Source of the DNA: Bacillota bacterium
GTDB taxonomy: Bacteria; Bacillota; Bacilli; Paenibacillales; Paenibacillaceae
Assembly (NCBI GenBank): GCA_023391635.1
Contig: JAEWAQ010000058.1
Coordinates: forward strand, 89,429-153,428
Direction of reading: 5' to 3'
DNA: 64,000 nucleotides
This document shows, piece after piece, positions 25,349 to 60,157 of the stretch. How positions within the stretch are numbered: the stretch's first letter is position 1; every line of letters starts with the position of its first letter. The notes beneath the pieces are model-generated. The model saw only the letters and a list, made by a program, of their open reading frames with translations. It did no database searches and was not told the DNA's origin. A program made the position numbers and the translations under genes.

Positions 25349-25361
25349 GAGAGGGTCTATT

Positions 25362-32014: not shown

Positions 32015-32025
32015 TGGTAATACCA
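32015..32025 (+). promoter_or_regulatory. FadR/GntR-type palindromic operator, copy 1 (TGGTAATACCA)
   Basis: Perfect inverted repeat followed by TACTATTATTAA. It lies 33 nt downstream of TTGACA (31976-31981) and 206 nt upstream of the YesS-like gene. Confidence 0.6.
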
Positions 32026-32220
32026 TACTATTATTAACGTCGTTAGCCGGCGGCATACGGCCAATGGATGCCATCCGCATTTCGTGGAGGTCCAATTACC
32101 CGCATGCTATAATGGGAGCAATTCAGCAGCGCCGACTCCCCAAGCATCCCTATCCGACAGCCGCTTGTCGGGCATGGTTTTGGAGAATAGTTTGGAACCG
32201 CTCTCACGGAGGGTGAACGC

Positions 32221-34446
32221 ATGAATCGTCAGACACGGGATTCGCACGGTTTGAGAAACCTATCCTATAAACGCCGCCTGACGCTCATCGTCTTGTTGCT
32301 CAGCGTCATTCCCGTGTTGGTGCTCGGCATGTTCTCCTCGACGAATGCGGCATCGATCGTGCAACAGGAAGTCGACCGCAACCATCTGATGGTCCTGCGC
32401 CAAATTCAGAATCAATTCGATCAGTTTATGAAAAGCATGGACCGCACATCCTTTCAAATTGCCAGCAACAGCATTGTCGAGAAGTCGGTCGAAATCGGCC
32501 CGATCAGCAAAGATTTGGGCTATACGTTCGGCGCGATCGACGTGATCAGAAAAACCCGCAGCACGCAGGAAATCCATTTCGACGTATCGTTGGTATACAT
32601 GCATGAAGAGCAAGTGTACTCAACACGCTACGGTTTTGTCGATTTGACCGATTTTCCTTATCGCGACCTGCTGAATTCGGTCGGCTTCCGGTTCGATTCG
32701 ACGGTCGTCGTACCGCCGGAAGCCGGTCAACGCATGCATGAACTGCTCATCGTACGCCCTGTCCCCGCCTTTTATTCGGACCGCCCGGATGGTATTCTCG
32801 TCTTCCATATAGATCCCTCTCAGCTGATTGGGATACTGGAGCAGGTCGAATTGGGCCATAACGGAAAAATTCTGATTGCGGATGAACAGGGCACGGTCGT
32901 ATTCAGCCAGAATGCGGCGGAGATCGGATCGCGGATCTCGGCAACGTCGGAACCGTTCATGATTCGGAAGCCGACGGCCGAAGCCGGTTCGGGGGGAGCC
33001 TCTGCGGAAGAAGCCGGCAAAGTATCCATGAATGGCGACGATTATCTCGTCGCTTCGGTCCGTTCATCCTTTAACGACTGGTCGTATATCGCGATTACGC
33101 CTTACAAGGAGTTGACCAAGAAGGCGGGGGGAGTGCGCCGATTCACGCTCGGCCTGGCGGGCTCGCTCGTGGGCTTGGCCGTGTTGTTGGCGCTCTTCGG
33201 TTCGAATCGGCTGTATTCCCCCATCCAGCGGATGCAGCAGAAATTGCAGGGGGAATTCCGCGAACAGCTGCCGTATCTTCGGGATTCGATTTTCCTTCAA
33301 CTGGTGAGAGGCGAGATGTCCGAGAACGAAATTCGCGACAAGACGGAACGTTACGGCTTGCTGTTGAAAGGTTCGCGTTTCTATGTATGCCTTGTGGAAA
33401 TGGACGATTTCGCCCGATTCAAGCAAAAGTACAAGGAAAACGACCGTTCCCTGATGATCTATGCCCAGCGCAAAATGTTGGAGGAATTGTGCGAGAGCGA
33501 GCTTTCCTGCGTGACGGTATCCCCGCTGCCGAACCAGGTTGCCGTGCTGATCGGCACGAAAGACGCCAGCGAGCGGGCGGATGAGACCGTGCGCCGGAAG
33601 GCGATGGAATTCCGGAGCAATATTCAGAACTACTTCCGCCTGTCGGTTACCGTGGCGCTCAGTCAGGCATGTCGGGACTACACCGGAATCAGCGAGGCGT
33701 ATCAGGAGGCGTCCGATCTGATCGGTTACCGGATGCTGCTCGGCAGCGAGCAATTGATCGGGCACGAATCCGTCAGAATGCCGCTCGGGACTTCGGGGCA
33801 TTCGCTGATCGAACTGAAGAAGCAAATTTTGGCGGCGATGGCGAAGGGGGACGATGCCGAAGCGAAGGCCATTTTGTCGGCGCTGATCGAAGCGATGCCG
33901 CAACAGATGCATAATGCCGAATCCGTGCTGGGCACGTTCGCTTATCTGATCGGGGAATTCGACCGGCTCGTGCGCGAATGGAGCGATGGCAGCGGGGAAT
34001 TGGATACGAAGGAGCTGTACAAGCAATTGCTGGCCATGTCATCGCTGGCCGAGACGGAGCGTTGGTTCGCGGAGACGGTATTTCCGCTCGTCATGAATGC
34101 GCTGCAAGACGCGAACCTGCCGAAACGAACGAAGCTGGTCCAGCAGGTGCTGCAATATATTCACTTGCATTACGACACGGACCTGAGCTTGCAGCTAGTG
34201 GCCGATACGTTCGGGATGACGCCCCCGCAGTTAAGCCGGTTGTTCCGCGAAGAGCGCAACGAGTCGTTCAGCGACTATGTCCTGCGCTGCCGGATCGAGA
34301 AAGCGAAGGAATGGCTTACCCATACCGAAATGCCGATTCGGGAAATCGCGGAACGTTTGCGCTACGCCTCCGTCCAAAATTTCACCCGGATCTTCAAACA
34401 GATGACGAACGAGCCTCCCGGTCATTACCGGAAGAAATCCCGATAA
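32221..34446 (+). CDS. YesS-like membrane-associated AraC-family regulator
   Basis: N-terminal TM (LTLIVLLLSVIPVLVLGMF), an extracytoplasmic sensor-like region and a second TM. C-terminal AraC HTH (IREIAERLRYASVQNFTRIFKQMTNEPPGHYRK). 741 aa. Confidence 0.8.
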   Translation: MNRQTRDSHGLRNLSYKRRLTLIVLLLSVIPVLVLGMFSSTNAASIVQQEVDRNHLMVLRQIQNQFDQFMKSMDRTSFQIASNSIVEKSVEIGPISKDLGYTFGAIDVIRKTRSTQEIHFDVSLVYMHEEQVYSTRYGFVDLTDFPYRDLLNSVGFRFDSTVVVPPEAGQRMHELLIVRPVPAFYSDRPDGILVFHIDPSQLIGILEQVELGHNGKILIADEQGTVVFSQNAAEIGSRISATSEPFMIRKPTAEAGSGGASAEEAGKVSMNGDDYLVASVRSSFNDWSYIAITPYKELTKKAGGVRRFTLGLAGSLVGLAVLLALFGSNRLYSPIQRMQQKLQGEFREQLPYLRDSIFLQLVRGEMSENEIRDKTERYGLLLKGSRFYVCLVEMDDFARFKQKYKENDRSLMIYAQRKMLEELCESELSCVTVSPLPNQVAVLIGTKDASERADETVRRKAMEFRSNIQNYFRLSVTVALSQACRDYTGISEAYQEASDLIGYRMLLGSEQLIGHESVRMPLGTSGHSLIELKKQILAAMAKGDDAEAKAILSALIEAMPQQMHNAESVLGTFAYLIGEFDRLVREWSDGSGELDTKELYKQLLAMSSLAETERWFAETVFPLVMNALQDANLPKRTKLVQQVLQYIHLHYDTDLSLQLVADTFGMTPPQLSRLFREERNESFSDYVLRCRIEKAKEWLTHTEMPIREIAERLRYASVQNFTRIFKQMTNEPPGHYRKKSR

Positions 34447-34489
34447 GATGCATGCCCGCTGCTTGCATTCCCCTTCGAACCATCACTTG

Positions 34490-34530
34490 AAACCCGCGTC
34501 GCTACGGCGATATCGCGGGTTTTTTCTTTT
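34490..34530 (+). terminator. rho-independent terminator after the YesS-like gene
   Basis: AAACCCGCG-(15 nt)-CGCGGGTTT followed by TTTTCTTTT. Confidence 0.8.
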
Positions 34531-34654
34531 GCGCAACGTTATTGTTCTTTATAAACGGGCGGCCTGCTCAAATGAAAATTGCGCTGTATTTCAACAAGTC
34601 TTATGCTGATGCCGTGAATCCGAAATGCGAGCCGAGATGGGAACAGGAGCCATG

Positions 34655-36019
34655 ATGGAAGAGGTGAAGCGCGCATGGTTAACCGTCGATTGCGCAGCGA
34701 GTGACATGCGTATCGTGCAGCATCATTACCGGACGCGTCGGGAACCGCTGATGACGCCGTTCGGTTTCAAAGGCAGATTTGTGCGGGAGTTATGGCAACC
34801 GCACGTACATCTTCAGGACGAGTCGGGCCGTTCGGCTGTCGGCATGGGCGTTCAAAGCCCGCTTTGGTGCGACGCGGCCATGTTCGCGCGGTTGGGCGAG
34901 ACCGAAAGCAACGACTGGATGGAACGGCTGACGCGATATGCGTTAACCGCGGCTGCGGAACTGGAATTCAAGCACCCGCTCGATCTGATGGACCAACTCG
35001 TTCCGATCGTTTACCGGCATGCGGCCGACCGGCTCGGCCATGATCGAATCAGCCGCACGTTCGTGCTAAACGCCGTGACCTGCATCGACCATGCGGCTTG
35101 GTCCCTCTATGCGCAATCCTGCGGAGAAGTTTCCTTGTTCCGTCTGGTGCCCGATCCCTGGAAAGGCGGATTGCCGCATCGGCATTCCGCGACGGCCAGC
35201 ATTCCGGTCATTCCGTACGGCATGACCGGCGGCGAGATCGCCAAGCTGCTGGAAGCCGGGTACTTCGTGCTCAAGATCAAGCTCGGCTCGGACCCCGAAG
35301 GCGACGGCGATCCCGTGAAGATGCTGGAATGGGATCAGGCCCGGCTTGCCCAGATTCACGAGCTGGCCAACCGATACGAGGCGCAGGGCCATGCGGACAA
35401 CTCCATTGTTTATTACTTGGACGCGAATGGAAGATACGACAGGAAAGAACGGTTGCTGCGGCTGCTCGAACACGCTCAATCGATCGGAGCATGGGACCGG
35501 CTTGTCTTATTCGAGGAACCGCTGCCCGAAACCAATCAGGAAGATTTGCGCGACATTCCCGTTCGGTTCGCGGCGGATGAACGCGTGCATAGCGAACAGG
35601 ATGCGCTGATCTGCCTGCAGCAGGGCTATCGGGCATTCGCCCTGAAGCCGGTCGCCAAGACGATGAGCTTCAGTCTGCAAATCGCCAGATTGGCTGCCGA
35701 GCATCAGGCCCCTTGTTTCTGCGCCGACCTGACCGCCAGCCCCGTGCTCGTCGATTGGACCAAGCTTCTCTCCGGCCATTTGGCGCCGCTGCCCGGGTTC
35801 CGCGGGGGGTTGACGGAAACGAACGGCGCCCAAAACTACAAGCGGTGGGCAGAAATGCGTTCCGAACACCCGATGAGGGGCGCTTCGTGGACCCAAGCCC
35901 GGCAAGGCTCGTTCGAACTGTCGGAGCGGTTCTATGCTTGCAGCGGAGGCGCGCTTCTGCATGGCGACGGAAGCTCGGTTACGGATAAGTCGACTTACGG
36001 GAAGGAGGGGCAGCCATGA
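34655..36019 (+). CDS. enolase-superfamily enzyme (MLE/MR-like epimerase, racemase or dehydratase)
   Basis: Barrel ligand pattern LKIKLG (KxK), YLDANGRY (Asp), LFEEPLP (Glu), FAADERV (Asp) and ALKPVAK (Lys). The start is ambiguous among 34625, 34637, 34652 and 34655; AGGAG at 34645 favours 34655. Confidence 0.65.
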   Translation: MEEVKRAWLTVDCAASDMRIVQHHYRTRREPLMTPFGFKGRFVRELWQPHVHLQDESGRSAVGMGVQSPLWCDAAMFARLGETESNDWMERLTRYALTAAAELEFKHPLDLMDQLVPIVYRHAADRLGHDRISRTFVLNAVTCIDHAAWSLYAQSCGEVSLFRLVPDPWKGGLPHRHSATASIPVIPYGMTGGEIAKLLEAGYFVLKIKLGSDPEGDGDPVKMLEWDQARLAQIHELANRYEAQGHADNSIVYYLDANGRYDRKERLLRLLEHAQSIGAWDRLVLFEEPLPETNQEDLRDIPVRFAADERVHSEQDALICLQQGYRAFALKPVAKTMSFSLQIARLAAEHQAPCFCADLTASPVLVDWTKLLSGHLAPLPGFRGGLTETNGAQNYKRWAEMRSEHPMRGASWTQARQGSFELSERFYACSGGALLHGDGSSVTDKSTYGKEGQP

Positions 36020-36945
36020 CCCGGTTGAAGTTCGGGATTGTGGACCTGGATACTTCCCATCCCGGGGAATTCGTTCCGATCATCCGATCGATGGGACATG
36101 AGGTGACCGCCGTGTACGACAGCGGCACGATATACCCGGCAGGCTATGCGGAAGCATTTGCCGGACAGCACGGGATCCGCATTGTGGCGGAAAGTCTGGA
36201 GAATATGGCCGAACATGTCGACGTGGCCCTGATCTGCGGGTGCAACTGGGACTTGCATGTAGGGCAGGCGCTGCCGTTCCTGTCCGCCGACAAAGGGATA
36301 TTGATCGATAAGCCGATGGCGGGGAACATCCGGGACTTGCTCCGAATCGCGGATTTCGCGAAAGACGGCGCCCGAATCGCGGGCGGTTCCTCCTTGCGGG
36401 TCTGCTACGAGGCGCGGGAATGGTCGGAGCTGCACGGATCGTCCGCGAGCTGGGTGTACGGGATAACCGGCTGCGGAGTGGACGAGTTCAATTACGGGAT
36501 CCATGGCTATGCGCTGCTTCACGGCCTGCTGGGCAGCGGGTTTGCAAGCGCCCGGTATTTGGGCACTTCCTTGCAGGATCAATTCGAATTGGAATGGGCC
36601 GACGGAAGACGGGGCATCGTCAGCATCGGCAAGGCCGATTCCTATCTGCCTTTCCATGCATCCGTGGTGACCGGCCGGGGCGTGCACCAGATTCAAGTGG
36701 ACAGCGGCAAGCTCTATCAAGCCTTGATCGAGCACGCGCTGCCGATCCTAAGCGGCGAATCGCCGGCGTCCATCCCGCCGGAGGCGTTGATCGCGCCCGA
36801 ACTGTCGGCTCTTGCGGCCAAGCGGTCCAAAGAGCTCGGGGGCGTACGCGTCCATGTCCGGGATATTCCGCTGGACGATCGCGGATTCGACGGCGCGGCA
36901 TTCGCCGCCGCCTATCGCAAACAAAAATCGAACAAAGAGGGTTGA
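36016..36945 (+). CDS. atypical Gfo/Idh/MocA-like protein (glycine-rich loop replaced by GIVDLDTSH)
   Basis: ATGA overlap with the enolase-family stop. N-terminus KFGIVDLDTSHPGEF and an ILIDKPMA (EKP-like) motif. 309 aa. Confidence 0.55.
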   Translation: MTRLKFGIVDLDTSHPGEFVPIIRSMGHEVTAVYDSGTIYPAGYAEAFAGQHGIRIVAESLENMAEHVDVALICGCNWDLHVGQALPFLSADKGILIDKPMAGNIRDLLRIADFAKDGARIAGGSSLRVCYEAREWSELHGSSASWVYGITGCGVDEFNYGIHGYALLHGLLGSGFASARYLGTSLQDQFELEWADGRRGIVSIGKADSYLPFHASVVTGRGVHQIQVDSGKLYQALIEHALPILSGESPASIPPEALIAPELSALAAKRSKELGGVRVHVRDIPLDDRGFDGAAFAAAYRKQKSNKEG

Positions 36946-36950
36946 GTGCA

Positions 36951-37931
36951 GTGCGTGAATTCAAAGTCGGCATAATCGGCTGCGGAATGCTCGGCAGGAC
37001 GCATGCGGCGTGCATCAAGGAACTGGAGCATATGAAACCGTACGCTTACTGCGACATCCATCTTCCGAGCGCCCAAAAACTGCTGGAGCAGTTCGGGGGC
37101 AGAATAGCGACGTCCGAAGTGGAGGAACTGCTCGCCGATCCGGACATCGACGTGCTCTATATTACGACCCAACACGATACCCATGCGGAATTGTGCATCC
37201 GGGCGCTCGGGGCCGGCAAGCATGTGTTGGTGGAAAAGCCGATGGCAATGACGGTCGAGGACTGCGTGCGGATCGGCGAAGCGGTCAAGGCGACCGGGAA
37301 GAAATTGTTCACGGCGTATAAAATGCGCTATTACGATATGCTTCTGAAAGCCAAATCGTTGATTCCCGAACCGGTGATGGTGGTTATGCAAATGATGGAC
37401 GATCGATGGGGGACGGGCACGTGGCCCAACGATCCGGTGAAGGGCGGAGGGAACGTCCTGAGCCAAGGCTGCCATTCCACGGACGTGCTGCGGTTTATCG
37501 CGGGAGGCAATCCGACGGAAGTGTATGCGGCGGGAGGAAATTATTATCAGGAGAGCGGAGTCGTCGATAATTTGACAGCCGTGTTCCGCTTCGACAACGG
37601 CGTCGCCGGTACTTTAATTCAAGGAGATTGCAGCTGTCCGCCGTTTACGAGCAAATTTTTCATGCAGATTTTCGCCGAACGCAAATCGATTACGCTATCC
37701 GACCGGTTGACCCGGCTGACCTATGCGGAAGAAGGCCGCGAGCCGGTCGTTTACGAAGGGACGGAATCCGGATTCCTGGAAGAGAACCGGGCGTTCGAAG
37801 CTTGCCTGGTCCAGGATGCTCCGCCGCCGATCGACCATATTGACGGCTTGTATTCGACCTTGATGGTGCTGCAAGCGTTTCAATCTCTCAAAACCGGCAA
37901 ACCGGAAAAAATATCTTCGATCGTGGAATAG
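36951..37931 (+). CDS. Gfo/Idh/MocA-family NAD(P)-dependent oxidoreductase
   Basis: GTG 36951 follows AGAGGG. KVGIIGCGMLGRTH Rossmann loop and the VLVEKPMA motif. The ORF-track 5' extension (36420-36950) overlaps the previous gene in another frame. Confidence 0.8.
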   Translation: MREFKVGIIGCGMLGRTHAACIKELEHMKPYAYCDIHLPSAQKLLEQFGGRIATSEVEELLADPDIDVLYITTQHDTHAELCIRALGAGKHVLVEKPMAMTVEDCVRIGEAVKATGKKLFTAYKMRYYDMLLKAKSLIPEPVMVVMQMMDDRWGTGTWPNDPVKGGGNVLSQGCHSTDVLRFIAGGNPTEVYAAGGNYYQESGVVDNLTAVFRFDNGVAGTLIQGDCSCPPFTSKFFMQIFAERKSITLSDRLTRLTYAEEGREPVVYEGTESGFLEENRAFEACLVQDAPPPIDHIDGLYSTLMVLQAFQSLKTGKPEKISSIVE

Positions 37932-37979
37932 GGGCCATGATGGCGCGTCGTCTCAGGACAGATCGATCTATGAAGGGGA

Positions 37980-40754: not shown

Positions 40755-40783
40755 TAGAAACGATGGAAGGAGGTGCAGCACGG

Positions 40784-41683: not shown

Positions 41684-41718
41684 GTTCGCGATGAGGAACG
41701 GGAAGGAGAGGGCCGTCC

Positions 41719-42597: not shown

Positions 42598-42670
42598 GTC
42601 GTATTACAATGGGAACAGGGTGCAAGGCGATTTTTGCAAGGCCAATCAACTTCAGGAGGGGATTACGTCC

Positions 42671-44308: not shown

Positions 44309-44386
44309 CATCCGCGGGTTCAGACGCAGGAACGGCATGGTCAGGCGAAGTTCGATCACATTTTCCATTTGAACGAGGTGCTGAAC

Positions 44387-49919: not shown

Positions 49920-49930
49920 TGGTAATACCA
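49920..49930 (+). promoter_or_regulatory. FadR/GntR-type palindromic operator, copy 2 (TGGTAATACCA)
   Basis: Immediately abuts a TATAAT hexamer (49914-49919), is followed by TAGTATGATTA, and lies 61 nt upstream of the sialidase-like ATG. Confidence 0.6.
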
Positions 49931-49980
49931 TAGTATGATTATGTTCCGTTTGACATCCATAGCTGAAAGGGAGTTCACCC

Positions 49981-53704: not shown

Positions 53705-53715
53705 TGGTTTTACCA
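53705..53715 (+). promoter_or_regulatory. FadR/GntR-type palindromic operator, copy 3 (TGGTTTTACCA)
   Basis: Followed by TACTATTATTAA, identical to copy 1. It lies 33 nt downstream of TTGACA (53666-53671; TTGACA-17-TAATGT) and 90 nt upstream of the first FadR-type gene. Confidence 0.6.
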
Positions 53716-53794
53716 TACTATTATTAATTATCGAAATTCGCTTCTTAAGCTTCTTGCTTTTATATGGATTCGTTGGCGTTTGGAGGAATTCTGC

Positions 53795-54454
53795 ATGAAG
53801 GCGATTCGCAAGTCTACGCTTGTCGAGCAAGCCGGCGAGGCGATCAAGAGACATATCGAGCAGCATCGGCTGCGCCCGGGCCAGAAGCTGCCGTCCGAGA
53901 GGGAATGGGTCGAATCGCTGCAAGTGAGCCGGACCGCCGTACGCGAAGCTTTGAAATCGCTGGAACTCGTCGGCGTCGTTCGCCTGAAACCCGGAGACGG
54001 CATCTACGTCAGCGACCCAAGTTTACGGCATATTACTCGGCACGTAACCTTTCAATGGAAGACCGACAAGCGGAAGCTGAAGGAGCTTCTCGAAATCCGC
54101 AAAATATTGGAGCTTGGCGCCGTGGAGCTGGCCGTGGGCCATCGGGATTCCGAAGCCATCGGGGATATGGCGCGCTGGGTGGAGCGGATGGAGGCCAAAG
54201 TGAAAAAGCGGTTGCCGGCCGTGGAGGAAGATTTGGCTTTTCACCGCGCCTTGTTCCGGGCGACCGGCAATGAGACGATGCTGCAATTCAGCGAGATGCT
54301 GGCCGAATTTTTCCCGGAGTCGCATGAGGAGCCTTGCACCGAGACGACGCTGAACGAGCATCGGGAAATTTACGATCGATTGAAGCAAGGCGACGCGCCG
54401 GGAGCGAGACGGGTATTGGAGGCGCACCTCGATTCGCTGAAGACGACCTTATAG
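53795..54454 (+). CDS. GntR-family regulator, FadR subfamily (wHTH + FCD)
   Basis: ATG 53795 follows TGGAGGA. LPSEREWVESLQVSRTAVREALKSLELVGVVRLKPGDGIYV and an all-helical FCD-like C-terminal domain. Confidence 0.85.
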   Translation: MKAIRKSTLVEQAGEAIKRHIEQHRLRPGQKLPSEREWVESLQVSRTAVREALKSLELVGVVRLKPGDGIYVSDPSLRHITRHVTFQWKTDKRKLKELLEIRKILELGAVELAVGHRDSEAIGDMARWVERMEAKVKKRLPAVEEDLAFHRALFRATGNETMLQFSEMLAEFFPESHEEPCTETTLNEHREIYDRLKQGDAPGARRVLEAHLDSLKTTL

Positions 54455-54467
54455 AAAGGAAACGAGC

Positions 54468-55166
54468 ATGATGCTAGCGGAACACAACCTGGATCGTAAA
54501 ATGTTAAGTCAAATCGCCAGCGACCAATTGAAACAATTTATCGCTGACAACCGGTTGAAGCCCGGAGACCAGCTGCCGACGGAACGGGAGCTTGCCGAAC
54601 GGATGCAAGTCAGTCGGCCGGTCGTCCGCGAGGCGCTGAACCGGTTGGAGACACTGCAGTTGATCGTCAAAGTTCAGGGTAAAGGCATCTTCGTGGCCGA
54701 GCAAAATTTGCATACGTTCTTCGAACAGATCGTGACCTTCTGGGATTCGGCGGATATGGGGATGGAGAAACTGCTTGCTTTCCGGCTCATGCTAGAGCAA
54801 GCGGCCATGGAGGAAATCGCCGAACAAGCCGTGCCCGAAGATTACGGCAGGCTGGAAGCCATGGTGAAGGCTTCGGCCGAGCCCGCGATTGACGAAGGGA
54901 CGTTCGTGCGAATGGATGCCGACTTCCACGCCGAGTTGATCCGCTTGACCGGCAACGAGCTGTTCCACCAGCTGTCGTCCACCGTTGCGCGTTATTTCGC
55001 CATGCTGCAGCTCCGGCTGCCGTCGGAAGAAGCGAAATCCGGAGCCGACCGGGCCAGGACGATCGCCGATCATCGCAAGCTCATCGGCTTGCTGTCCGCC
55101 AAGCAGGTGAAGGATGCCAAGCAGTTATTGAAGGAGCATCTGCTGGACACGGGAACGCTCACCTGA
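54468..55166 (+). CDS. GntR-family regulator, FadR subfamily (second tandem paralogue)
   Basis: LPTERELAERMQVSRPVVREALNRLETLQLIVKVQGKGIFV and an FCD-like C-terminal domain. Confidence 0.85.
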   Translation: MMLAEHNLDRKMLSQIASDQLKQFIADNRLKPGDQLPTERELAERMQVSRPVVREALNRLETLQLIVKVQGKGIFVAEQNLHTFFEQIVTFWDSADMGMEKLLAFRLMLEQAAMEEIAEQAVPEDYGRLEAMVKASAEPAIDEGTFVRMDADFHAELIRLTGNELFHQLSSTVARYFAMLQLRLPSEEAKSGADRARTIADHRKLIGLLSAKQVKDAKQLLKEHLLDTGTLT

Positions 55167-55178
55167 ATGCCAGATAGC

Positions 55179-55198
55179 GACGAAACGGATGTTTCGTC
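55179..55198 (+). terminator. hairpin after the second FadR-type gene (GACGAAAC-GGAT-GTTTCGTC)
   Basis: 8-bp perfect stem and 4-nt loop, followed by an AT-rich stretch but only a weak U-tract. Confidence 0.45.
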
Positions 55199-55206
55199 AT
55201 TAAAAT

Positions 55207-55217
55207 TGGTATTACCA
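55207..55217 (+). promoter_or_regulatory. FadR/GntR-type palindromic operator, copy 4 (TGGTATTACCA)
   Basis: Followed by TACTATGTATTG. It lies 60 nt upstream of the ThrC-like gene. Confidence 0.6.
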
Positions 55218-55266
55218 TACTATGTATTGAAATTAGACACCATCTGATTGTATAGGAGCGAGCTGG

Positions 55267-56388
55267 ATGAGAGAGTTCCTGACGGCCGTAAACCGGCAGA
55301 AAGAGGGCATATGGCGATATGCCGACCTCTTGCCCGAAGTGGGGACGGAGCACCAGATCACGATGGGCGAAGGCGGAACGCCGCTTATCGCCAGCCGCCG
55401 CATCGCCGCCGAGCTGGGTCTGTCCTCACTGTATTTCAAGCTGGAGGGCAGCAATCCGACGGGTTCGTACAAGGACCGTATCTCGGCATTGGGGGTTTCC
55501 CGGGCGCTGCAACGGGGCAGGGTAGGCTGCATCGGTACCTCTTCCGGCAATGCGGGAGCGTCCGCAGCCGCCTATGCGGCCAGGGCGGGATTGCCGTATG
55601 CGCTGCTGGTGCTCGAACAGATCGCAGAGACGAAATTGATGCAGGCGGCCTTGCATGATGCGCAGATCATCAAAGTCAAAGGGTTCGGGACAAGCGCCGA
55701 AGTCGGCGACCGTGTGTTCCGCTTCATCGAGGAACAAGCGGAAAGCCTGGATCGGGAAGTGATGATTACCGCTTTCCGCTATAATCCCGTTGCGATGGAA
55801 GCCGTCAAGACGATTGCGTTCGAGCTGCTGGAGAAATTCGGAGAGAAGCTGCCGGATGCCGTTTTCGCGCCGGTCGGGGGCGGTGGATTGTTTACGGGGA
55901 TATGGAAAGGCTTCAAGGAGCTTCACGACCGTCAATGGATCGGCCGGATGCCCTTGATGGCGGCGGTCCAGTCGGAGGGCTGCTCCAACATTGCGCGTGC
56001 ATGGCAAGCTGGGGATGACCGGCCTGCGCCGGGGGATTCGACGTCAGGGATTTCCGGGCTGCAGGTGCCAAATCCGCCGGATGGGGAGTTGGTGCTGAAG
56101 GGGTTGAAGGAAGATGGCGGTTTCGCGGTAGCGGTGTCCGACGAAGAAGCGTGGGCATGGCAGGAACGGCTTGCGGCCGAGGAAGGAATCTGGTGCGAAC
56201 CGGCTGCAGCCGTCTCGTTGGCCGGAGTGAAGCGGGCTTTGGACGAAGGCAGGCTGACGCCGGGAGGAAGTGCGGTGTGCATTCTGACCGGCGCCGGCTA
56301 TAAAGACGTTCAGAGAGGGCAGGCCATGCTGCGGGCCAAGTCGGAAATTCCGCTGCTCGGCATGGACGAACTGATATCGACTTTGTAG
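55267..56388 (+). CDS. threonine-synthase-family (short type) PLP-dependent enzyme
   Basis: FKLEGSNPTGSYKDR (PLP lysine), GTSSGNAGASAAAYAARAG, and the GGGGL phosphate loop. Confidence 0.75.
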   Translation: MREFLTAVNRQKEGIWRYADLLPEVGTEHQITMGEGGTPLIASRRIAAELGLSSLYFKLEGSNPTGSYKDRISALGVSRALQRGRVGCIGTSSGNAGASAAAYAARAGLPYALLVLEQIAETKLMQAALHDAQIIKVKGFGTSAEVGDRVFRFIEEQAESLDREVMITAFRYNPVAMEAVKTIAFELLEKFGEKLPDAVFAPVGGGGLFTGIWKGFKELHDRQWIGRMPLMAAVQSEGCSNIARAWQAGDDRPAPGDSTSGISGLQVPNPPDGELVLKGLKEDGGFAVAVSDEEAWAWQERLAAEEGIWCEPAAAVSLAGVKRALDEGRLTPGGSAVCILTGAGYKDVQRGQAMLRAKSEIPLLGMDELISTL

Positions 56389-56405
56389 GAGAGGGGGCAT
56401 GGGCC

Positions 56406-57395
56406 GTGAAGAGGATAAAAGCCGGGTTGATCGGTCTCGGCCGCTTTGCCGAGCTGCATCTGCGGTGTCTGGATCAAATCGTGGACGTAGAGGTTGCGGC
56501 CGTTTGCGACGTCGACGCGGAGAGGGCGGATCGGGTTGCCCGCGCACGCGGCTGTAACTTTTATACCGATTGGAATCGAATGCTGGAACGGGAATCGCTC
56601 GACGCGATCCACGTCTTGACGCCGGAACACGCGCATGTCGAGCCGGCTGTTGCGGCGTTAAGAGACGGCTGCAGCGTCTTCGTGGAGAAGCCGCTCGCGC
56701 TTGACGTCGCTGGCGCCTGCCATATTCGGGACGTGGCGGGCGCCAGCGACGGCCTGCTTATGGTCGGCCACGTCTGCCGGTTCGACGTCCGTTATGCCCT
56801 GGCGATGGACGCTATCCGGCAAGGGAAGCTCGGGGCCGTGCGCTCCCTCTATGCCCGCCGGAACAATATGAATAAGTTTTTTCCGCTGTACCGCCGCACT
56901 CACCCCTTCTTCACGCTTGGCATTCACGATATCGATTTGTTCCGCTGGTTCACGAGCTCGAACGTAACGGAAGTGTACGCCCGGTCGGGGAAAGACGCGA
57001 ACGGGCATACCGACCTGGTCTGGGCGATGCTGAAATTCGAGAACGGAGTGATCGGTGTCGTGGAGAACCATTGGCTCCTGCCGGACGGAGCCCCTGCTTT
57101 CATGGATTCGGCCATGGAAATCGTGGGGGATGGCGGCATCTATCAGCTGCGCGAGCCCGATCAATCCGCCGTGCTGTGGAGCCGGAGCGAGACATTGGCG
57201 CCTCCGTTGTTCTCTTCGGGTGAACTGCACGGGAAGCTGACCGGGCCGCTGCTTGAGGAACTGCGTCATTTCTACGATTGCGTCGAACGCAACGCCGCAT
57301 CGGACATTTTGCTGCCGGATGACGCGGTGAAAGCGGTGGAAGTGGCGGAAGCTGTCGTCTGCTCCTGCGAGATCGGGCAGCCGGTGGTGCTCTAG
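56406..57395 (+). CDS. Gfo/Idh/MocA-family oxidoreductase
   Basis: GTG 56406 follows GGAGAGGGGG. KAGLIGLGRFAELH Rossmann loop and the VFVEKPLA motif. Confidence 0.8.
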   Translation: MKRIKAGLIGLGRFAELHLRCLDQIVDVEVAAVCDVDAERADRVARARGCNFYTDWNRMLERESLDAIHVLTPEHAHVEPAVAALRDGCSVFVEKPLALDVAGACHIRDVAGASDGLLMVGHVCRFDVRYALAMDAIRQGKLGAVRSLYARRNNMNKFFPLYRRTHPFFTLGIHDIDLFRWFTSSNVTEVYARSGKDANGHTDLVWAMLKFENGVIGVVENHWLLPDGAPAFMDSAMEIVGDGGIYQLREPDQSAVLWSRSETLAPPLFSSGELHGKLTGPLLEELRHFYDCVERNAASDILLPDDAVKAVEVAEAVVCSCEIGQPVVL

Positions 57396-57424
57396 CCTCG
57401 GCCGGAGACAAGGAGGGGATGGCC

Positions 57425-58159
57425 ATGAAGCTCGGCGAACGGATCTGTCTCGTCGGCAGCGGAGCGCTCGGCATGAACTTGACCAACGAATACGACTGCA
57501 ACGTGTATCTGCTCGATACCGGCGACGGCTTCGTCCTCGTAGATTGCGGTTCCGGCCTGGAATCGGAGCGCATACTCGGCGAGATTCGCCGGGACGGCAT
57601 CGATCCGGCCGGTATTACCCACATCGTCGTCACCCACGCGCACGCCGACCATGCCGGCGGTGCAGCGGGCCTGAGCCGTTCGACCGGCGCCGCCATCGTC
57701 TGCTCGCCGCAGACGGCCGCTATTCTCGGGAGCGGGGATGAGGCGGCGATCTATTTGCCGGAGAGCCGCAGGGCGGGTCTCTATCCGGAGGATTACCGGC
57801 TGGAGAGCTGTGTTCCCACGCTGACCGTCTCGCACCTGGAAGAGATGAAAGCGGGGGAGATCACCTTGCAATTCATCAGCGCGCCGGGGCACAGCGACGA
57901 TATGATTTGCTGTTACGTGAAGCAATGGCAGGCGTTGTTCTGCAGCGATCTGGTTTTCCATGGCGGCAGGATCGCGATGCTGCCAACGCCGGAGTTCTCC
58001 CTCTACCGGCTGTCGCAAAGCGTGCGGATATTGGCGGAGTACGCCATCGAAGGGTTGTACCCGGGACATTTGTCGCCTGTACGGACAGGCGGGGATCAAG
58101 TCGTCCGCAAGGTGAACGCGACCTTCGAATCCTTGAGAATCCCGCCGAATATCGTGTAA
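57425..58159 (+). CDS. MBL-fold metallo-hydrolase
   Basis: HAHADHAGG (HxHxDH) motif. AGGAGG at 57411 favours ATG 57425 over 57419. Confidence 0.8.
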   Translation: MKLGERICLVGSGALGMNLTNEYDCNVYLLDTGDGFVLVDCGSGLESERILGEIRRDGIDPAGITHIVVTHAHADHAGGAAGLSRSTGAAIVCSPQTAAILGSGDEAAIYLPESRRAGLYPEDYRLESCVPTLTVSHLEEMKAGEITLQFISAPGHSDDMICCYVKQWQALFCSDLVFHGGRIAMLPTPEFSLYRLSQSVRILAEYAIEGLYPGHLSPVRTGGDQVVRKVNATFESLRIPPNIV

Positions 58160-58188
58160 TTCAAACATGCTTGCGGAGGCAGGATCAG

Positions 58189-59199
58189 ATGACGAACATT
58201 CGACAGATATGCGCAGAACAATTCGATTACCGCAGCATGGCTGCGGGCAGCAAAGCCCATTACCTCGTCCGCTTCAGCGATGACGAACCGGACGCGGGCG
58301 CGATCCCCGCCGTCGTGGTCAAGGGGGAGCGGGAAGGCCCGACGCTGCTCGTGCTGGCCGCCGTCCACGGGGACGAGTATGAAGGCGTACGGGCGCTGAT
58401 CGAGCTGCTGCGTGCGATCAAGCCGAACGACGTGCTCGGCACGCTGGTCGCGGTTCCGATCGCCAATAAGTCCGCATATGCGAACGGTACGCGGGAATCC
58501 GCGGCGGACGGGTTGAATTTGGCCAGGGCATTTCCGGGCGACCCTCAGGGGACGTACACAAGGAAGCTGGCCTGGACGCTGAGGGAAAAGTTTATTTCGC
58601 GCGCCGATTTTTTATTGGATTTGCATAGCGGCGGAACGCACTATGCCATGCCTCCGCTTGTCGGGTATTACCACGATCCCGATAGCGAAGCGGGAAGGCG
58701 ATCCCGGACGGCGGCGGAAGCATTCGGAATGAACACCATCTGGGGACATTCCGTCATCGCGCCGGGAAGAACGATCAGCGCGGCGCAGGAACTCGGCATT
58801 CCCTGGCTGTATACGGAAGGATACGGCGGCCAGCGCATTCGCGAGGACGAACTGCGTTTGTACTACGACGGCGTGCTTCGTCTCTTGCAGCATTTGAACA
58901 TGTTGGCCGAGCCGCAGCGCTGGCTGAGCGCCCCGTTCGCGGGAGCGACGCACCGTTATTTGGGAGACGGTAATTTGGACCGATCGGCGACAGCCCGGTT
59001 GGACGGTTTCTTTGTGCCCGCTGTCCGTTTCCTGCAACAGGTGGAGGCGGGCGAGCGGATCGGAGGCATTTACGATTGTTATGGCCAGGAGCAGCAGTCC
59101 GTCATCAGCGAGCATGCGGGGCATGTCATGATGCTGAGAGAAGTTCCTTATACCCGCAAAGGCGATCCGCTGTATGTCCTTGCTACGGCTCGCCTATAG
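58189..59199 (+). CDS. succinylglutamate desuccinylase/aspartoacylase-family (M14-like) zinc deacylase
   Basis: ATG 58189 follows GGAGGCAGG. AAVHGDEYEG zinc motif, plus DLHSGG and AFPG motifs. Confidence 0.75.
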   Translation: MTNIRQICAEQFDYRSMAAGSKAHYLVRFSDDEPDAGAIPAVVVKGEREGPTLLVLAAVHGDEYEGVRALIELLRAIKPNDVLGTLVAVPIANKSAYANGTRESAADGLNLARAFPGDPQGTYTRKLAWTLREKFISRADFLLDLHSGGTHYAMPPLVGYYHDPDSEAGRRSRTAAEAFGMNTIWGHSVIAPGRTISAAQELGIPWLYTEGYGGQRIREDELRLYYDGVLRLLQHLNMLAEPQRWLSAPFAGATHRYLGDGNLDRSATARLDGFFVPAVRFLQQVEAGERIGGIYDCYGQEQQSVISEHAGHVMMLREVPYTRKGDPLYVLATARL

Positions 59200-59263
59200 G
59201 CGAAGTCCGGACCTGTTGTCGCTAGCGGGCGACTAGAATCATAACGATAAGGATGGGATAACC

Positions 59264-60157
59264 ATGAGAGCAGGATTTTACACGGCGTTGGGAACACCTC
59301 TGGACGACAACGGGGATTTCGTAGTTGCAAGCTTTCATATGCACGTGGAGGACCAAGTTGGCGCAGGAGCTTCAGGGCTCTTGGTGATGGGGTCCATGGG
59401 ACAGCAGGCGTCCGTGAAAAACAGCGAATTCGTGAAGATCGCCCGCACAGGGGTGGAAGCGGCGAAGGGAAGAAGCCCGGTATTCGCAGGAGTTATGGAT
59501 AATAGCTTCAGCCGGGTGATGGAACGGATTCGCGGCTTGGAAGGTTTGAAGCTGGATGGCGTCGTAGCCACCATGCCCTATTATTTCAAATTAAATCAGT
59601 CCGAGGCGCTGCGGTTTTTCACCGCGACCGCGCAAGCGTCTCCCTTTCCTGTATACCTGTACGATTTGCCGTCCGTCACGCAAACGAGGATCGAGCCCGC
59701 GACGTTGCTGGAACTCATGAAAGTGCCCAACATCGCCGGGATCAAGACCAATGACCTGAATCTGTCGCGAATGCTGCAGAAGGCGCATTTGCCGCCGGCC
59801 GCACCGGCGGATGGCGATTTCCAGCTCATGTTTAGCGGGCTGGACGTATTCGACATTGCCTACGGGTACGGCATCACCAAGCAGTTGGACGGCATGTTCG
59901 CTTGCACGGCTCCACTGACGAAGCGGCTATATGCTGCCCTGTCTTCCGCTCATCGAGAGGAGGCGGCTCAGATCTTGAACGATATCGTGAGGCTGCGGGA
60001 TCAACTGGTCGCCGTCGGCGTGTTCCCGGGATTCTCCCATGCGATGAACCTGCTCGGATTCAAAGGCAACTTCGCCCCCGATTATGCGGGCGTTCTGGAT
60101 GCGCAAGCCAAGGAAGCCGTAAGAGCTTGCATGCAGCAAATCGGATTGATCGATTAA
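59264..60157 (+). CDS. DapA/NanA-family class I aldolase (dihydrodipicolinate synthase family)
   Basis: YTALGTPLDDNG, VYLYDLPSVT (Tyr motif) and IAGIKTND (Schiff-base Lys context). The usual G(S/T)TGE reads GSMGQ here. Confidence 0.75.
   Translation: MRAGFYTALGTPLDDNGDFVVASFHMHVEDQVGAGASGLLVMGSMGQQASVKNSEFVKIARTGVEAAKGRSPVFAGVMDNSFSRVMERIRGLEGLKLDGVVATMPYYFKLNQSEALRFFTATAQASPFPVYLYDLPSVTQTRIEPATLLELMKVPNIAGIKTNDLNLSRMLQKAHLPPAAPADGDFQLMFSGLDVFDIAYGYGITKQLDGMFACTAPLTKRLYAALSSAHREEAAQILNDIVRLRDQLVAVGVFPGFSHAMNLLGFKGNFAPDYAGVLDAQAKEAVRACMQQIGLID

Follow-up and report, generated by a model that had tools for sequence, protein, structure and literature searches.

The nan loci of E. coli and Ruminococcus gnavus are made up of NanR, NanA, NanS, NanOx/YjhC, an SBP-dependent importer and a sialidase. 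The catabolic genes for ectoine and hydroxyectoine encode the deacetylase DoeB, the aminotransferase DoeD, the PLP enzyme EutB and the GntR-type regulator EnuR, and the yes/lpl locus of Bacillus subtilis serves rhamnogalacturonan. EnvSia156 is an inverting exosialidase of family GH156 (PDB 6rzd; PMC6811678, PMC6254351), and a bioRxiv study of this family suggests Kdn, Pse, Leg, Kdo and Dha as possible substrates of its divergent members.

In the window, the 64,000-nucleotide stretch of DNA analysed here, about 20 genes of a soil Paenibacillus-type bacterium appear from their sequences to stand under one presumed repressor system. They seem to encode a widely conserved, uncharacterised pathway that resembles sialic-acid utilisation without a true sialic-acid enzyme. 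The features of the locus, with families assigned by Pfam and NCBIfam scans, are as follows.

30059-30454, + strand: RidA, just outside 32015-60157 and without an operator
30451-31926, + strand: MlrC/M81 peptidase-like gene, just outside 32015-60157 and without an operator
32015-32031, + strand: operator copy 1, TGGTAATACCATACTAT, 5' of the yesS-like gene
32221-34446, + strand: YesS-like membrane sensor-regulator (dCache_1, GGDEF_2, AraC HTH)
34625-36019, + strand: divergent enolase-superfamily protein, 464 aa (MR_MLE_C, 38.8 bits, above cutoff)
36016-36945, + strand: Gfo/Idh/MocA oxidoreductase 1 (GFO1), only the Rossmann domain detected
36942-37931, + strand: Gfo/Idh/MocA oxidoreductase 2 (GFO2)
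37989-40754, + strand: FG-GAP/VCBS protein, signal-less, ~920 aa
40784-44308, + strand: LplB and LplC permeases and LplA-type solute-binding protein, a CUT1-type sugar ABC importer
44387-49756, + strand: giant secreted protein, 1789 aa, with signal peptide
47249-48400, + strand: GH156-like (beta/alpha)8 domain of the giant protein, aa 961-1344
49920-49936, + strand: operator copy 2, 5' of the BNR_2 unit
49981-51147, + strand: BNR_2 protein (BNRcyt), a signal-less six-bladed propeller by its model
51205-51984, + strand: SDR
51981-52628, + strand: SGNH/GDSL_2 esterase (PF13472)
52671-53621, + strand: aldo-keto reductase (AKR)
53705-53721, + strand: operator copy 3, 5' of the GntR regulator pair
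53795-55166, + strand: two GntR/FCD regulators of the FadR subfamily
55207-55223, + strand: operator copy 4, 5' of the ThrC-like gene and its five-gene module (55267-60157)
55267-56388, + strand: ThrC-family PLP enzyme, first gene of the module
56406-57395, + strand: Gfo/Idh/MocA oxidoreductase 3 (GFO3), same module
57425-58159, + strand: MBL-fold hydrolase, same module
58189-59199, + strand: AstE/AspA-type zinc deacylase, AstE/DoeB-like, same module
59264-60157, + strand: DHDPS/NAL-superfamily Schiff-base lyase, same module

All of the gene types that a first-pass annotation had listed at 32015-60157 were recovered by the scans and, as it had claimed, neither a ROK/NanK-type kinase nor a NanE epimerase lies in that segment; NagA, NagB and an ATPase gene for the LplABC importer are likewise not in the locus. 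No enzyme of the regulon reached a family-specific threshold in model scans, and the labels 'sialidase-like', 'NanA-like' and 'NanS-like' express superfamily-level resemblance only. The SDR (nearest to gluconate-5-dehydrogenase/KduD models), the SGNH esterase and the AKR share one transcription unit with BNRcyt. In the DHDPS protein the Schiff-base Lys and catalytic Tyr are in place, but the Arg138 of DapA is not. The enolase-superfamily protein has no sequence match among solved structures and has a 48% identical ortholog in P. agaridevorans; its gene and those of GFO1 and GFO2 are accessory, being absent from the corresponding locus of the close relative Paenibacillus sp. PAMC21692.

The units had been proposed to be operator-linked, and this holds: the 17-bp operator TGGTWWTACCATASTAT has four matches, all on the + strand, where 0.01 are expected, and four matches occurred in none of 100 shuffles. 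Each copy is intergenic and lies 5' of a transcription unit, and two of the four are in or beside promoter-like sites (copy 1 within the site 32006-32034, copy 2 with a TTGACA-17-TATTGT site 15 nt upstream). A hairpin followed by a T-run lies 3' of the yesS-like gene at ~34490-34530. The two GntR/FCD proteins are presumed to be repressors that bind the FadR-type palindrome TGGTnnnACCA, and copy 3, a predicted site before their own genes, would make them autoregulatory. In P. eucommiae both a homologous GntR pair and a similar operator are located 5' of BNRcyt. Neither PAMC21692 nor P. cymbidii has the operator in its orthologous locus, and the regulon as such is therefore lineage-specific.

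The giant protein consists of a signal peptide, LamG-like modules, the GH156-like barrel, Big_2 and invasin/Big_1 domains. Its four LamG-like modules of ~210 aa each (aa 55-262, 268-473, 480-683 and 1358-1567) share 26-47% identity with one another. The middle-domain profile found EnvSia156 (6rzd) as its best match among solved structures (E 5.9e-36); when the profile was built from close homologs only, 6rzd still scored 8.7e-14 against 7e-4 for Cwp19/GHL10. This sialidase-related signal goes beyond what the first reading had observed. It lends the suggested sialic-acid-like route an Arg pair and an Asp, as the equivalents of Asp14, Arg129, Arg202 and Arg246 are retained, while the catalytic His is missing: the position of His134 holds Tyr or Phe, and Tyr in the giant protein. 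When the window domain was aligned with the EnvSia156 reference and the 153 nearest proteins, the Asp was conserved in 123/123 and the two Arg in 140/144 and 146/151, and the His134 column held 97 Tyr against 6 His. The barrel belongs to a large sister clade in which Tyr predominates. A cytoplasmic GH156-like homolog elsewhere stands beside a heparinase-II/III/ulvan-lyase-like protein, a hint at uronic-acid polymers that tells against the explanation preferred below.

BNRcyt represents a family with 45-64% identity across more than eight phyla. It has three Asp-boxes, and its model (pLDDT 86) matches 5hx0 best and GH33 sialidases next (TM 0.6-0.66, E ~1e-12 to the latter), so that it is predicted to have the sialidase propeller fold. 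In this sense the description of the protein at 49981 as sialidase-like stands; however, it carries YFPS where sialidases have the RIP motif, the first Arg of the triad being replaced by an invariant Tyr, and the sialidase nucleophile Tyr could not be located in it. With neither the GH156 His nor the initial triad Arg of sialidases in place, it cannot be taken for granted that these proteins act as glycosidases on ulosonic acids. The FG-GAP family shows 46-55% identity across phyla; its model (pLDDT 85) comprises ~800 residues of repeated four-stranded blades and a C-terminal beta-sandwich, and a structural search with it gave no informative neighbour.

The order YesS-FG-GAP-LplBCA-Giant-BNR is kept in PAMC21692, where an 85% identical YesS ortholog lies directly 5' of the FG-GAP operon. 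In Propionibacteriaceae and Microlunatus, GFO-DHDPS-AstE-PALP-Opp-GntR/FCD is divergent from FG-GAP (with or without BNR_2), and Microbacterium has MlrC-RidA-...-PALP/DHDPS-AstE-lactonase-FG-GAP-BNR_2. RidA and the MlrC gene of the window probably belong to the same system as the regulon, because both flank this cluster in Microbacterium. The actinobacterial versions carry an Opp/SBP_bac_5 importer, typical of peptides, which runs counter to the explanation preferred below. In non-actinobacterial phyla a BNR_2 protein occurs with DHDPS, SDR, GFO, SGNH, sodium:solute symporter and GH156-like genes, and Chthonomonadales loci are nan-like, with GntR/FCD, DHDPS, BNRcyt, a secreted GH156-like protein, an SSF symporter and two secreted BNR_2 proteins. 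Among 80 BNRcyt loci, 11 have an SSF symporter and about 20 have DHDPS-family genes, further neighbours being secreted BNR_2, SGNH, FG-GAP and GH156-like proteins; none of the 80 has PLP, MBL or AstE. One such locus (L032) reads DHDPS-BNRcyt-GFO-aminotransferase-SDR, with DHDPS 43% and SDR 58% identical to the window proteins, and in another (L013) the ortholog of the window DHDPS also adjoins BNRcyt. In loci L089 and L092, AstE adjoins a BNRcyt paralog, Amidohydro_2 and an aminotransferase. The AstE family is accompanied by a PLP enzyme in 10 loci, by MlrC and by a class-III aminotransferase in 7 each and by enolase-superfamily proteins in 5, and a peptide SBP also occurs with it. Co-occurrence of the whole set, which had been suggested as a check, held for sub-modules only: the complete set was found in 0/80 genome loci around BNR_2 homologues, in 0/80 metagenome loci around AstE homologues and in none of the FG-GAP contexts looked up. 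Because synteny recurs in distant lineages, the units are functionally linked. The peptide-type parts of the conserved core are the Opp importer, MlrC, RidA, the AstE-like deacylase and the ThrC-like PLP enzyme. The 'NanA-like' gene has peptide- or amino-acid-type enzymes as its conserved partners, joined in Actinobacteria by the Opp-type importer, and these indicate an N-acylated or amino-acid-conjugated substrate, perhaps an acidic sugar that bears an N-acyl group or a linked amino acid, or else a glycopeptide.

We give an even chance to the view that this is a catabolic, GntR/FCD-repressed regulon for an extracellular glycan or glycoconjugate with a carboxylate-bearing, probably N-acylated, sialic-acid-like unit. 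The regulon reading is based on the FadR-type palindrome at four promoters, the regulator pair behind one of them and the recurrence of the parts together in other phyla; the enzymatic order is drawn at every step from family chemistry. An intracellular pathway intermediate would release the two FCD repressors and so derepress the BNR_2 unit, the five-gene module, the repressor genes and the YesS-like membrane sensor, which would detect external substrate via dCache and activate the operon 34625-49756. Outside the cell the giant protein would dock on the polymer through its four LamG-like modules, and its GH156-related barrel would cleave off the acidic unit with the Asp base, the Arg-Arg carboxylate clamp and Tyr in place of the His acid. 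After uptake of the released fragment by LplABC, the FG-GAP protein and the sialidase-fold propeller may dismantle the glycoside in the cytoplasm, where the SGNH esterase would take off O-acyl groups. The AstE-like deacylase (with MlrC) would then strip N-acyl or aminoacyl groups, the ThrC-like PLP enzyme (with RidA) would eliminate or deaminate the amino function, and the DHDPS-type lyase would split a 4-hydroxy-2-oxo acid into pyruvate and an aldehyde to be processed onward by the GFO/SDR/AKR oxidoreductases and the MBL lactonase.

As to the substrate, a nonulosonic or ulosonic acid of bacterial or plant origin (di-N-acyl pseudaminic or legionaminic acid, KDN, Kdo or Dha), much as the first-pass annotation had proposed, is possible, if doubtful. 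The GH156-like enzyme and BNRcyt would then be glycosidases and the DHDPS protein an ulosonate lyase, with AstE, PLP, GFO and MBL disposing of the N-acylated deoxy-amino-hexose after aldol cleavage. This fits the retained clamp and base, the substrates listed in the bioRxiv GH156 study, the fold of BNRcyt, the nan-like Chthonomonadales loci and the deacylase and aminotransferase/PLP genes that recur beside BNRcyt, as expected for N-acylated amino sugars; a literature search found no catabolic route for Pse or Leg. Yet no Nan-enzyme ortholog is present, His134 and the RIP arginine are both missing, no solved sialidase matches the secreted BNR_2 protein of locus L162 in sequence, and the Opp-type importer, MlrC and RidA are unexpected for a free nonulosonic acid. 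We consider it unlikely that the substrate is a glycopeptide or glyco-amino acid, for example O-glycosylated Ser/Thr/Hyp peptides (flagellins, S-layers, plant or algal wall proteins) or muropeptides. Here the propellers and the GH156-like enzyme would trim sugars, and MlrC, the AstE-like and ThrC-like PLP enzymes, RidA and DHDPS would degrade the amino-acid part, a gamma-hydroxy/gamma-substituted alpha-amino acid or an O-linked residue removed by beta-elimination. The Opp/SBP_bac_5 importer recurs in three actinobacterial clusters, MlrC adjoins RidA in both the window and Microbacterium, the AstE family keeps the company described above, and peptidoglycan is the target of the barrel's GHL10 relatives (Cwp19); but the barrel is far closer to GH156 than to GHL10, the importer is of CUT1 sugar type in Paenibacillus and an SSF symporter in other phyla, and no MurQ, AnmK, amidase or hydroxyproline epimerase or dehydrogenase gene is present.

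A uronic-acid-containing polysaccharide (ulvan-, gum- or glycosaminoglycan-like), whose carboxylate the Arg pair would bind, is improbable. It would leave the PLP, AstE, MlrC and RidA genes unexplained, polysaccharide lyase, GH88/GH105, KduI and KdgK are all missing from the regulon, and the enolase-like gene and GFO1/2, parts of the non-phosphorylative sugar-acid pathway it posits (oxidoreductases, lactonase, enolase-superfamily dehydratase, DHDPS-type aldolase), are accessory. In its favour, the Hepar_II_III/ulvan-lyase-like neighbour of the cytoplasmic GH156-like homolog is a protein of 2195 aa, PAMC21692 has an ulvan-lyase-like gene 8 kb upstream, the GFO, SDR, MBL, enolase-like and DHDPS-type set fits Weimberg/Dahms-type logic, and the SDR is nearest to gluconate-5-dehydrogenase/KduD models. 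It is more improbable still that the units are functionally unrelated, a glycan-import operon and an amino-acid-derivative module with nothing in common but their regulator in this strain, as the absence of the operator in PAMC21692 and P. cymbidii and the lack of PLP, MBL and AstE from the BNRcyt loci might suggest: in three actinobacterial genera FG-GAP and BNR_2 directly adjoin PALP-AstE-DHDPS-GFO and a GntR/FCD gene, the window-DHDPS ortholog adjoins BNRcyt in L032 and L013, and AstE adjoins the BNRcyt paralog in L089 and L092.

With ectoine and hydroxyectoine genes the locus shares an AstE/DoeB-like deacylase (DoeB model, E 1.9e-33) and the grouping of such a deacylase with PLP enzymes and class-III aminotransferases, controlled by a regulator of the GntR family; however, the deacylase scores 116 against a DoeB cutoff of 403, DoeA, DoeC and EutC are missing from the window, and its PLP enzyme is ThrC-type rather than EutB-type. 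The B. subtilis yes/lpl locus likewise has a YesS-type AraC regulator, an LplABC importer, an SGNH esterase and an extracellular depolymerase with cytoplasmic finishing enzymes, whereas the window lacks PL11, GH105 and GH42 enzymes and its regulator carries a dCache sensor and is presumably subject to GntR control itself.

The barrel is homologous to the (beta/alpha)8 barrel of EnvSia156: the base (Asp14), the pair that clamps the carboxylate (Arg129/Arg202) and the buried Arg246 are conserved, and the phylum distribution is similar (PVC, Armatimonadota, Firmicutes). It differs in the Tyr/Phe at His134 (the acid), in a +1 aromatic platform (Trp164, Phe278, Trp279) that is not conserved, and in its setting as one domain of a secreted protein of 1789 aa that has many lectin-like modules. 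GH33 sialidases and the uncharacterised Dfer_1899 (PDB 5hx0) share the six-bladed Asp-box beta-propeller with BNRcyt, whose Glu56 aligns with the GH33 acid/base Asp and whose 'FPS' motif recurs in 5hx0; unlike GH33 enzymes, it has Tyr for the first triad Arg and no signal peptide, and the TM reaches only 0.6-0.66.

The nan loci are alike at the superfamily level in the FCD-type GntR repressor with its palindromic operator, the DHDPS/NAL-superfamily lyase, the SGNH esterase, the Gfo/Idh/MocA oxidoreductases, the ABC importer and the sialidase-fold or sialidase-related proteins. The interpretation given by the first-pass annotation is supported in part, as orthology is lacking behind the likenesses it drew: the protein at 49981 is no ortholog of GH33 sialidases, that at 59264 stays at 64 bits where the NanA cutoff is 281 (49-64 bits against 281-382 over the NanA models), the esterase at 51981 belongs to PF13472 and not to the SASA family of NanS, and GFO3 has its nearer relatives in the inositol dehydrogenases, not in NanOx/YjhC. 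The window lacks NanK, NanE, NagA and NagB and has PLP, AstE, MBL, MlrC, RidA and FG-GAP as extra conserved genes. The locus follows the logic of a nan locus, yet draws each enzyme from a different, uncharacterised subfamily.

The 28-kb segment at 32015-60157 is a real, co-regulated and modular catabolic system, probably for acidic-glycan utilisation, and it holds several large uncharacterised protein families. An ORF listing together with Pfam and NCBIfam scans recovered all of the gene types named in the first-pass annotation, at or next to the positions given there, and the reported lack of ManNAc kinase and epimerase was also borne out, as no NanK-like or NanE-like gene was found within the segment.

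Components of the regulon segment
32221-34446, YesS-like regulator with dCache and AraC domains (Pfam/NCBIfam)
within the segment, enolase-superfamily protein (match weak yet above the Pfam cutoff)
within the segment, three Gfo/Idh/MocA proteins (Pfam/NCBIfam), the third (GFO3) at 56406-57395
37989-40754, FG-GAP protein, 921 aa (Pfam/NCBIfam)
within the segment, LplB, LplC and a substrate-binding protein, SBP (Pfam/NCBIfam)
44387-49756, giant secreted protein, 1789 aa
49981-51147, BNR_2 protein, 388 aa (Pfam/NCBIfam)
within the segment, SDR, SGNH esterase (51981-52628) and AKR (Pfam/NCBIfam)
53795-55166, two GntR/FCD regulators (Pfam/NCBIfam)
55267-60157, ThrC-family PLP enzyme, MBL hydrolase, AstE/AspA-type deacylase and DHDPS-family protein (Pfam/NCBIfam)

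The proposed link through a shared operator held as well. Four copies of the motif TGGTWWTACCATASTAT are present in the 64-kb window, where 0.01 would be expected. Each is on the + strand and lies in the intergenic region 5' of one unit: the yesS-like gene, the BNR_2 gene, the GntR pair or the ThrC-like gene. The motif's core, TGGTnnTACCA, is the classic palindrome of the FadR subfamily, and both regulators at 53795-55166 carry GntR winged-helix and FCD domains (Pfam); judged from sequence, the pair combines the GntR domain, the FCD domain and the palindromic TnGTnnnACnA-type operator of FadR-subfamily GntR repressors, the operator being putative. The copy at 49920 lies 15 nt 3' of a promoter-like TTGACA-17-TATTGT and that at 32015 lies within a promoter-like site, which is weak support because promoter scans were not enriched over shuffles. 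The operon at 34625-49756 is without an operator and is preceded by a hairpin and T-run after yesS, an arrangement implying a cascade in which the FCD repressors would control YesS and YesS would control the import and depolymerase operon. The exact motif was not found in 80 comparison loci and is absent from the loci of P. cymbidii and Paenibacillus sp. PAMC21692; a related form occurs only in P. eucommiae and once in a further fetched locus (L004). In P. eucommiae a GntR pair (46-50% identical) and the related operator, TTGGTTAGACCATAGTAT, sit 5' of BNR_2. An Rfam search of the window returned no RNA element and no T-box. Separately, the divergent GntR/FG-GAP intergenic regions of two actinobacterial genera (L162, 9853-10000; L167, 9860-10000) have in common the motif TTGTCGnAnGTAnCACGTCCnACAA, which is unlike the Paenibacillus operator and may be the local operator in these actinobacteria.

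The giant protein is the most informative part of the locus. It consists of a signal peptide, four LamG-like modules of ~210 aa each (mutual identity 26-47%), a middle domain (47249-48400, aa 961-1344) and, at the C-terminus, Big_2 and invasin-like domains. Compared by sequence with solved structures, the full-length protein matched at its C-terminal Ig domains only; the middle domain has no Pfam match of its own, and its homologs carry PF02638 (GHL10). The relationship to GH156 is visible with profiles only: against the PDB, a middle-domain profile with diverse homologs (A2) gave as its top match the (beta/alpha)8 barrel of EnvSia156 (6rzd, E 5.9e-36), and one from close homologs only (A3) gave 6rzd at E 8.7e-14 versus 7e-4 for Cwp19/GHL10, establishing homology to the barrel. 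In EnvSia156, Asp14 is the base, His134 the acid and Arg129, Arg202 and Asn346 the carboxylate triad, with a buried Arg246 and an aromatic +1 platform as further features (PMC6811678). The window's domain keeps the equivalents of Asp14, Arg129, Arg202 and Arg246; the acid is lost, with Tyr, or Phe in the other register, at the His134 position (RMNAFYN versus RMNDVHY in EnvSia156), and the +1 aromatics are not conserved. The alignments to 6rzd stop at residue 310, before Asn346, and a conserved 'IFNNW' strand is present whose register is not fixed. An exhaustive HMMER search with the domain returned 4639 cluster representatives (E <= 1e-3). Residues were counted in an alignment of 155 sequences, made up of the window domain, EnvSia156 as the reference and the 153 nearest proteins matching the profile: Asp14 is conserved in 123 of 123, Arg129 in 140 of 144 and Arg202 in 146 of 151, and at the His134 position 97 sequences have Tyr and 6, the EnvSia156 reference among them, have His. 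Because the Asp and the two Arg are near-invariant and the His134 position is mostly Tyr, these alignments place the window domain in a large uncharacterised sister clade of GH156 predicted to retain the carboxylate clamp. Sequences without the Asp-His dyad were explicitly left out of a study on GH156 enzymes of the gut, which suggested that divergent members might act on Kdn, Pse, Leg, Kdo and Dha.

The other sialidase-related family is that of the BNR_2 protein, which scores 36.6 bits with Pfam BNR_2 (cutoff 31.4), has three SxDxGxxW Asp-boxes and lacks a signal peptide. Members are ~370 aa long, are 45-64% identical between distant groups and are found in Paenibacillus, Armatimonadota, Planctomycetota, Verrucomicrobiota, Lentisphaerota, Chloroflexota, Hydrogenedentota and Latescibacterota. 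An AlphaFold (AF2) model built from 16 sequences (pLDDT 86) is a six-bladed propeller, which together with the Asp-boxes agrees with the GH33 fold. Its nearest solved structure by Foldseek is the uncharacterised Dfer_1899 (5hx0, TM 0.69-0.73), on which we found nothing relevant in the literature, and GH33 sialidases rank after it (TM 0.6-0.66, E ~1e-12). The arginine triad of GH33 is not intact: in profile alignment 'YFPS' falls on the sialidase '(R)IPAL', and Tyr33, at the position of the first triad Arg ('RIP'), is present without exception in the 16/16 family members compared, which come from 8 phyla. The invariant Glu56 pairs with the acid/base Asp of 'GDAP' in 7lbu, and because the sequence alignment did not extend to the C-terminal blades it did not locate the Tyr nucleophile. 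Since an invariant Tyr replaces the first triad Arg, the protein has the sialidase fold minus one defining GH33 feature. A secreted 1022-aa BNR_2 protein in the actinobacterial locus L162 was considered as a canonical sialidase partner and rejected; it is unusable as evidence for one because it matches no solved sialidase sequence.

The model of the FG-GAP protein (pLDDT 85) gave no functional lead, because its Foldseek matches were generic multi-propeller proteins only (DDB1, TM 0.2-0.28). Comparison with the sequences of solved structures returned integrin repeats only for this protein and nothing meaningful for the enolase-like protein. The promoter/terminator region 5' of the FG-GAP operon is near-identical in PAMC21692 (window 34625-37931 versus 9748-10000 of its locus, L165), and the window has an insertion, made up of the enolase-like gene and two GFO genes, that separates this promoter from the FG-GAP gene. 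Two further loci (L166 and L171, 10001-18531) come from a Caldilineaceae MAG and from a metagenome-assembled chromosome of 6 Mb, and in both a CUT1 ABC importer and an Alpha_L_fucos/GHL6/GH42M protein of 707 aa come after the FG-GAP protein; this triad of FG-GAP protein, sugar importer and GHL-type barrel is also present in Paenibacillus.

Synteny was sampled in 80 genome loci centred on BNR_2 homologs and in 80 metagenome loci centred on AstE homologs, which were compared with the window proteins and whose neighbouring ORFs were clustered. Of the expected co-occurrence, sub-modules recur, but the complete set was found only on the source contig. Near the BNR_2 family lie DHDPS genes of three subfamilies (~20 of 80 loci), a sodium:solute symporter (11), two small unknown proteins (9 and 6) and the FG-GAP protein (6-7 loci, 43-49% identical), as well as GH156-like proteins (L002, L044, L011 and one Chthonomonadales cluster), secreted BNR_2, SGNH, GFO, SDR, Amidohydro_2 and class-III aminotransferases. 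Orthologs of the window DHDPS (39-43% identical) adjoin BNR_2 in L032 and L013; the order in L032 is GntR - small protein - DHDPS - BNR_2 - GFO - aminotransferase - SDR, its SDR being 58% identical to that of the window. The small proteins, of ~155 aa and ~168 aa and without a Pfam family, almost always lie directly 3' of the DHDPS-family gene beside BNR_2 (L013, L022, L032, L034, L038, L065, L066, L069, L079); the ~168-aa protein has a conserved Cys-rich C-terminus, and neither has a homolog in the window.

The FG-GAP contexts in Actinobacteria are the strongest evidence that the parts belong together. In Propionibacteriaceae and Microlunatus, GFO-DHDPS-AstE-PALP-OppDFCB-SBP_bac_5-GntR/FCD is divergent from FG-GAP, which in the Propionibacteriaceae locus only is followed by a BNR_2 gene and then a secreted BNR_2/F5_8 protein. 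In Microbacterium (L163), Opp-MlrC-RidA-IclR-SDR-PALP adjoins DHDPS-AstE-SGL lactonase-FG-GAP-BNR_2. The ThrC-like enzyme, deacylase, lactonase and FG-GAP protein had been listed as unexplained extras; they are present, but because of these contexts they are a conserved core and not noise. A gene for RidA (30059-30454), translationally coupled to an MlrC/M81 peptidase-like gene (30451-31926), lies directly 5' of the first operator. The pair has no operator of its own; it flanks the PALP/DHDPS/AstE/FG-GAP/BNR_2 cluster in Microbacterium, and MlrC homologs also occur as neighbours of AstE (7 metagenome loci) and of BNR_2 (2 genome loci). Both genes are probably members of the system. The closest sequenced relative, PAMC21692 (84-89% identical), has YesS-FG-GAP-LplBCA-Giant-BNR_2 and lacks the enolase-like gene, GFO1/2 and the operator, so the 28-kb regulon is a lineage-specific assembly from conserved modules. 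A literature search on the gene combination found nothing relevant.

Within the five-gene module, the ThrC-like protein (55267-56388) scores above the cutoff of TIGR00260 (179.6 versus 167.1) and below that of PRK08197 (248 versus 303); its gene context is catabolic and is kept with AstE and DHDPS elsewhere. Near it, on the - strand at 28444-29856, lies a gene for a further threonine synthase, of the long form (Thr_synth_N + PALP + THR4_C). Other parts of the window include a separate sugar-type cluster at 20441-28241.

Components of the separate sugar-type cluster
20441-22165, SBP
22305-23819, FGGY kinase; the cluster also has two ~250-aa proteins
25197-26180, SIS_2 protein
26224-27552, PF12831 FAD oxidoreductase
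27396-28241, creatininase-family amidohydrolase

Creatininase-family genes adjoin AstE homologs in 6 metagenome loci. Positions 5028-15234 encode two dCache/HAMP histidine kinases with AraC-type response regulators and more ABC permeases, an arrangement typical of Paenibacillus polysaccharide-utilisation islands, and the 764-aa protein at 1347-3641 has no Pfam family.

Several peptide-type features argue for a substrate that would carry N-acyl or aminoacyl groups, or for a glyco-amino acid: the Opp importer, MlrC and RidA, the deacylase of AstE type with DoeB as its nearest match, the ThrC-like PLP enzyme and, in sister loci, class-III aminotransferases. In a chemically coherent order, such a substrate would undergo de-O-acylation, then de-N-acylation, then PLP-dependent elimination or deamination with the imine handled by RidA; a DHDPS-type lyase would next carry out aldol cleavage of a 4-hydroxy-2-oxo acid, and the remaining sugar would pass to oxidoreduction and lactone hydrolysis.

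ALTERNATIVES

A uronic-acid polymer as the substrate is hinted at by one GH156-like homolog that adjoins a heparinase/ulvan-lyase-like giant and by an ulvan-lyase-like gene upstream in PAMC21692, but the regulon holds no lyase, GH88/105 or Kdu/Kdg genes. The GHL10 relatives of the barrel (Cwp19, DigH) suggest peptidoglycan harvesting, which we rank lower because the barrel is far nearer GH156 (E 8.7e-14 versus 7e-4) and MurNAc-specific enzymes are absent. The view that the modules are unrelated and merely share their regulation is contradicted by the synteny in Actinobacteria. Degradation of AHL/homoserine lactones by the five-gene module (lactonase, deacylase and ThrC-like enzyme) was also considered and rejected, as it leaves unexplained the propellers, the importer and the fact that the DHDPS protein has lost its ASA-binding Arg.

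We consider it unlikely, on balance, that the regulon is the first catabolic pathway for bacterial sialic-acid-like sugars, that is, di-N-acyl nonulosonic acids such as pseudaminic or legionaminic acid (Pse/Leg), possibly amino-acid-bound; a literature search on Pse/Leg catabolism found nothing relevant. If it were, the missing glycosidases would be the Tyr-variant clade of GH156 together with the cytoplasmic, arginine-less family of sialidase fold; the FG-GAP double propeller would be a new class of glycoside-processing enzyme and the PALP-AstE-DHDPS-GFO-lactonase module the downstream route, the system as a whole being spread over Firmicutes, Actinobacteria, PVC, Armatimonadota and Chloroflexota. 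Bacterial surfaces and environmental matrices widely carry nonulosonic and other acidic sugars, and to our knowledge almost nothing is known of the microbial recycling of acidic sugars beyond Neu5Ac. The locus offers concrete candidates: a clade related to GH156 that has thousands of members in the databases and is without the catalytic His of that family, two cytoplasmic propeller families that are very strongly conserved yet have no assigned function, and a module of five enzymes that accompanies them in several phyla. Solving the substrate would probably add new CAZy families and, even for a glycopeptide or other acidic glycan, would assign functions to several large 'hypothetical' families.

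What stands of the sialic-type pathway first proposed is a modular catabolic system under common regulation, whose logic is sialic-acid-like and which has two sialidase-related families; every enzyme in it is non-canonical, and the suggested counterparts of the sialic-acid utilisation (nan) enzymes did not survive comparison. The defining domain of NanS is SASA/DUF303 (PF03629); for the SGNH protein Pfam gives only Lipase_GDSL_2 (PF13472), Lipase_GDSL and NonGDSL, and no SASA. GFO3, taken as NanOx/YjhC-like, is closer to solved inositol dehydrogenases (3cea, E 1.6e-26) than to RgNanOx (6z3b, 8e-15, Rossmann half only) or YjhC (6o15, 5e-13). The DHDPS protein (59264-60157; PF00701, 108 bits) has the DHDPS/NAL fold, with its 'GIKTN' Lys and 'LYDLP' Tyr lining up with Lys161 and Tyr133 of DapA. 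It is not DapA, because it scores 101.8 bits against a cutoff of 206 and Arg138 is replaced by Val, and all three BNR_2-associated DHDPS subfamilies are likewise orphans. Compared with the nan systems, the window's DHDPS protein keeps the Schiff-base Lys and the Tyr yet falls far below the NanA cutoffs (PRK04147, 63.9 bits versus 281; TIGR00683, 48.9 versus 382). The likeness of the regulon to nan systems is one of logic and superfamily, not of orthology.
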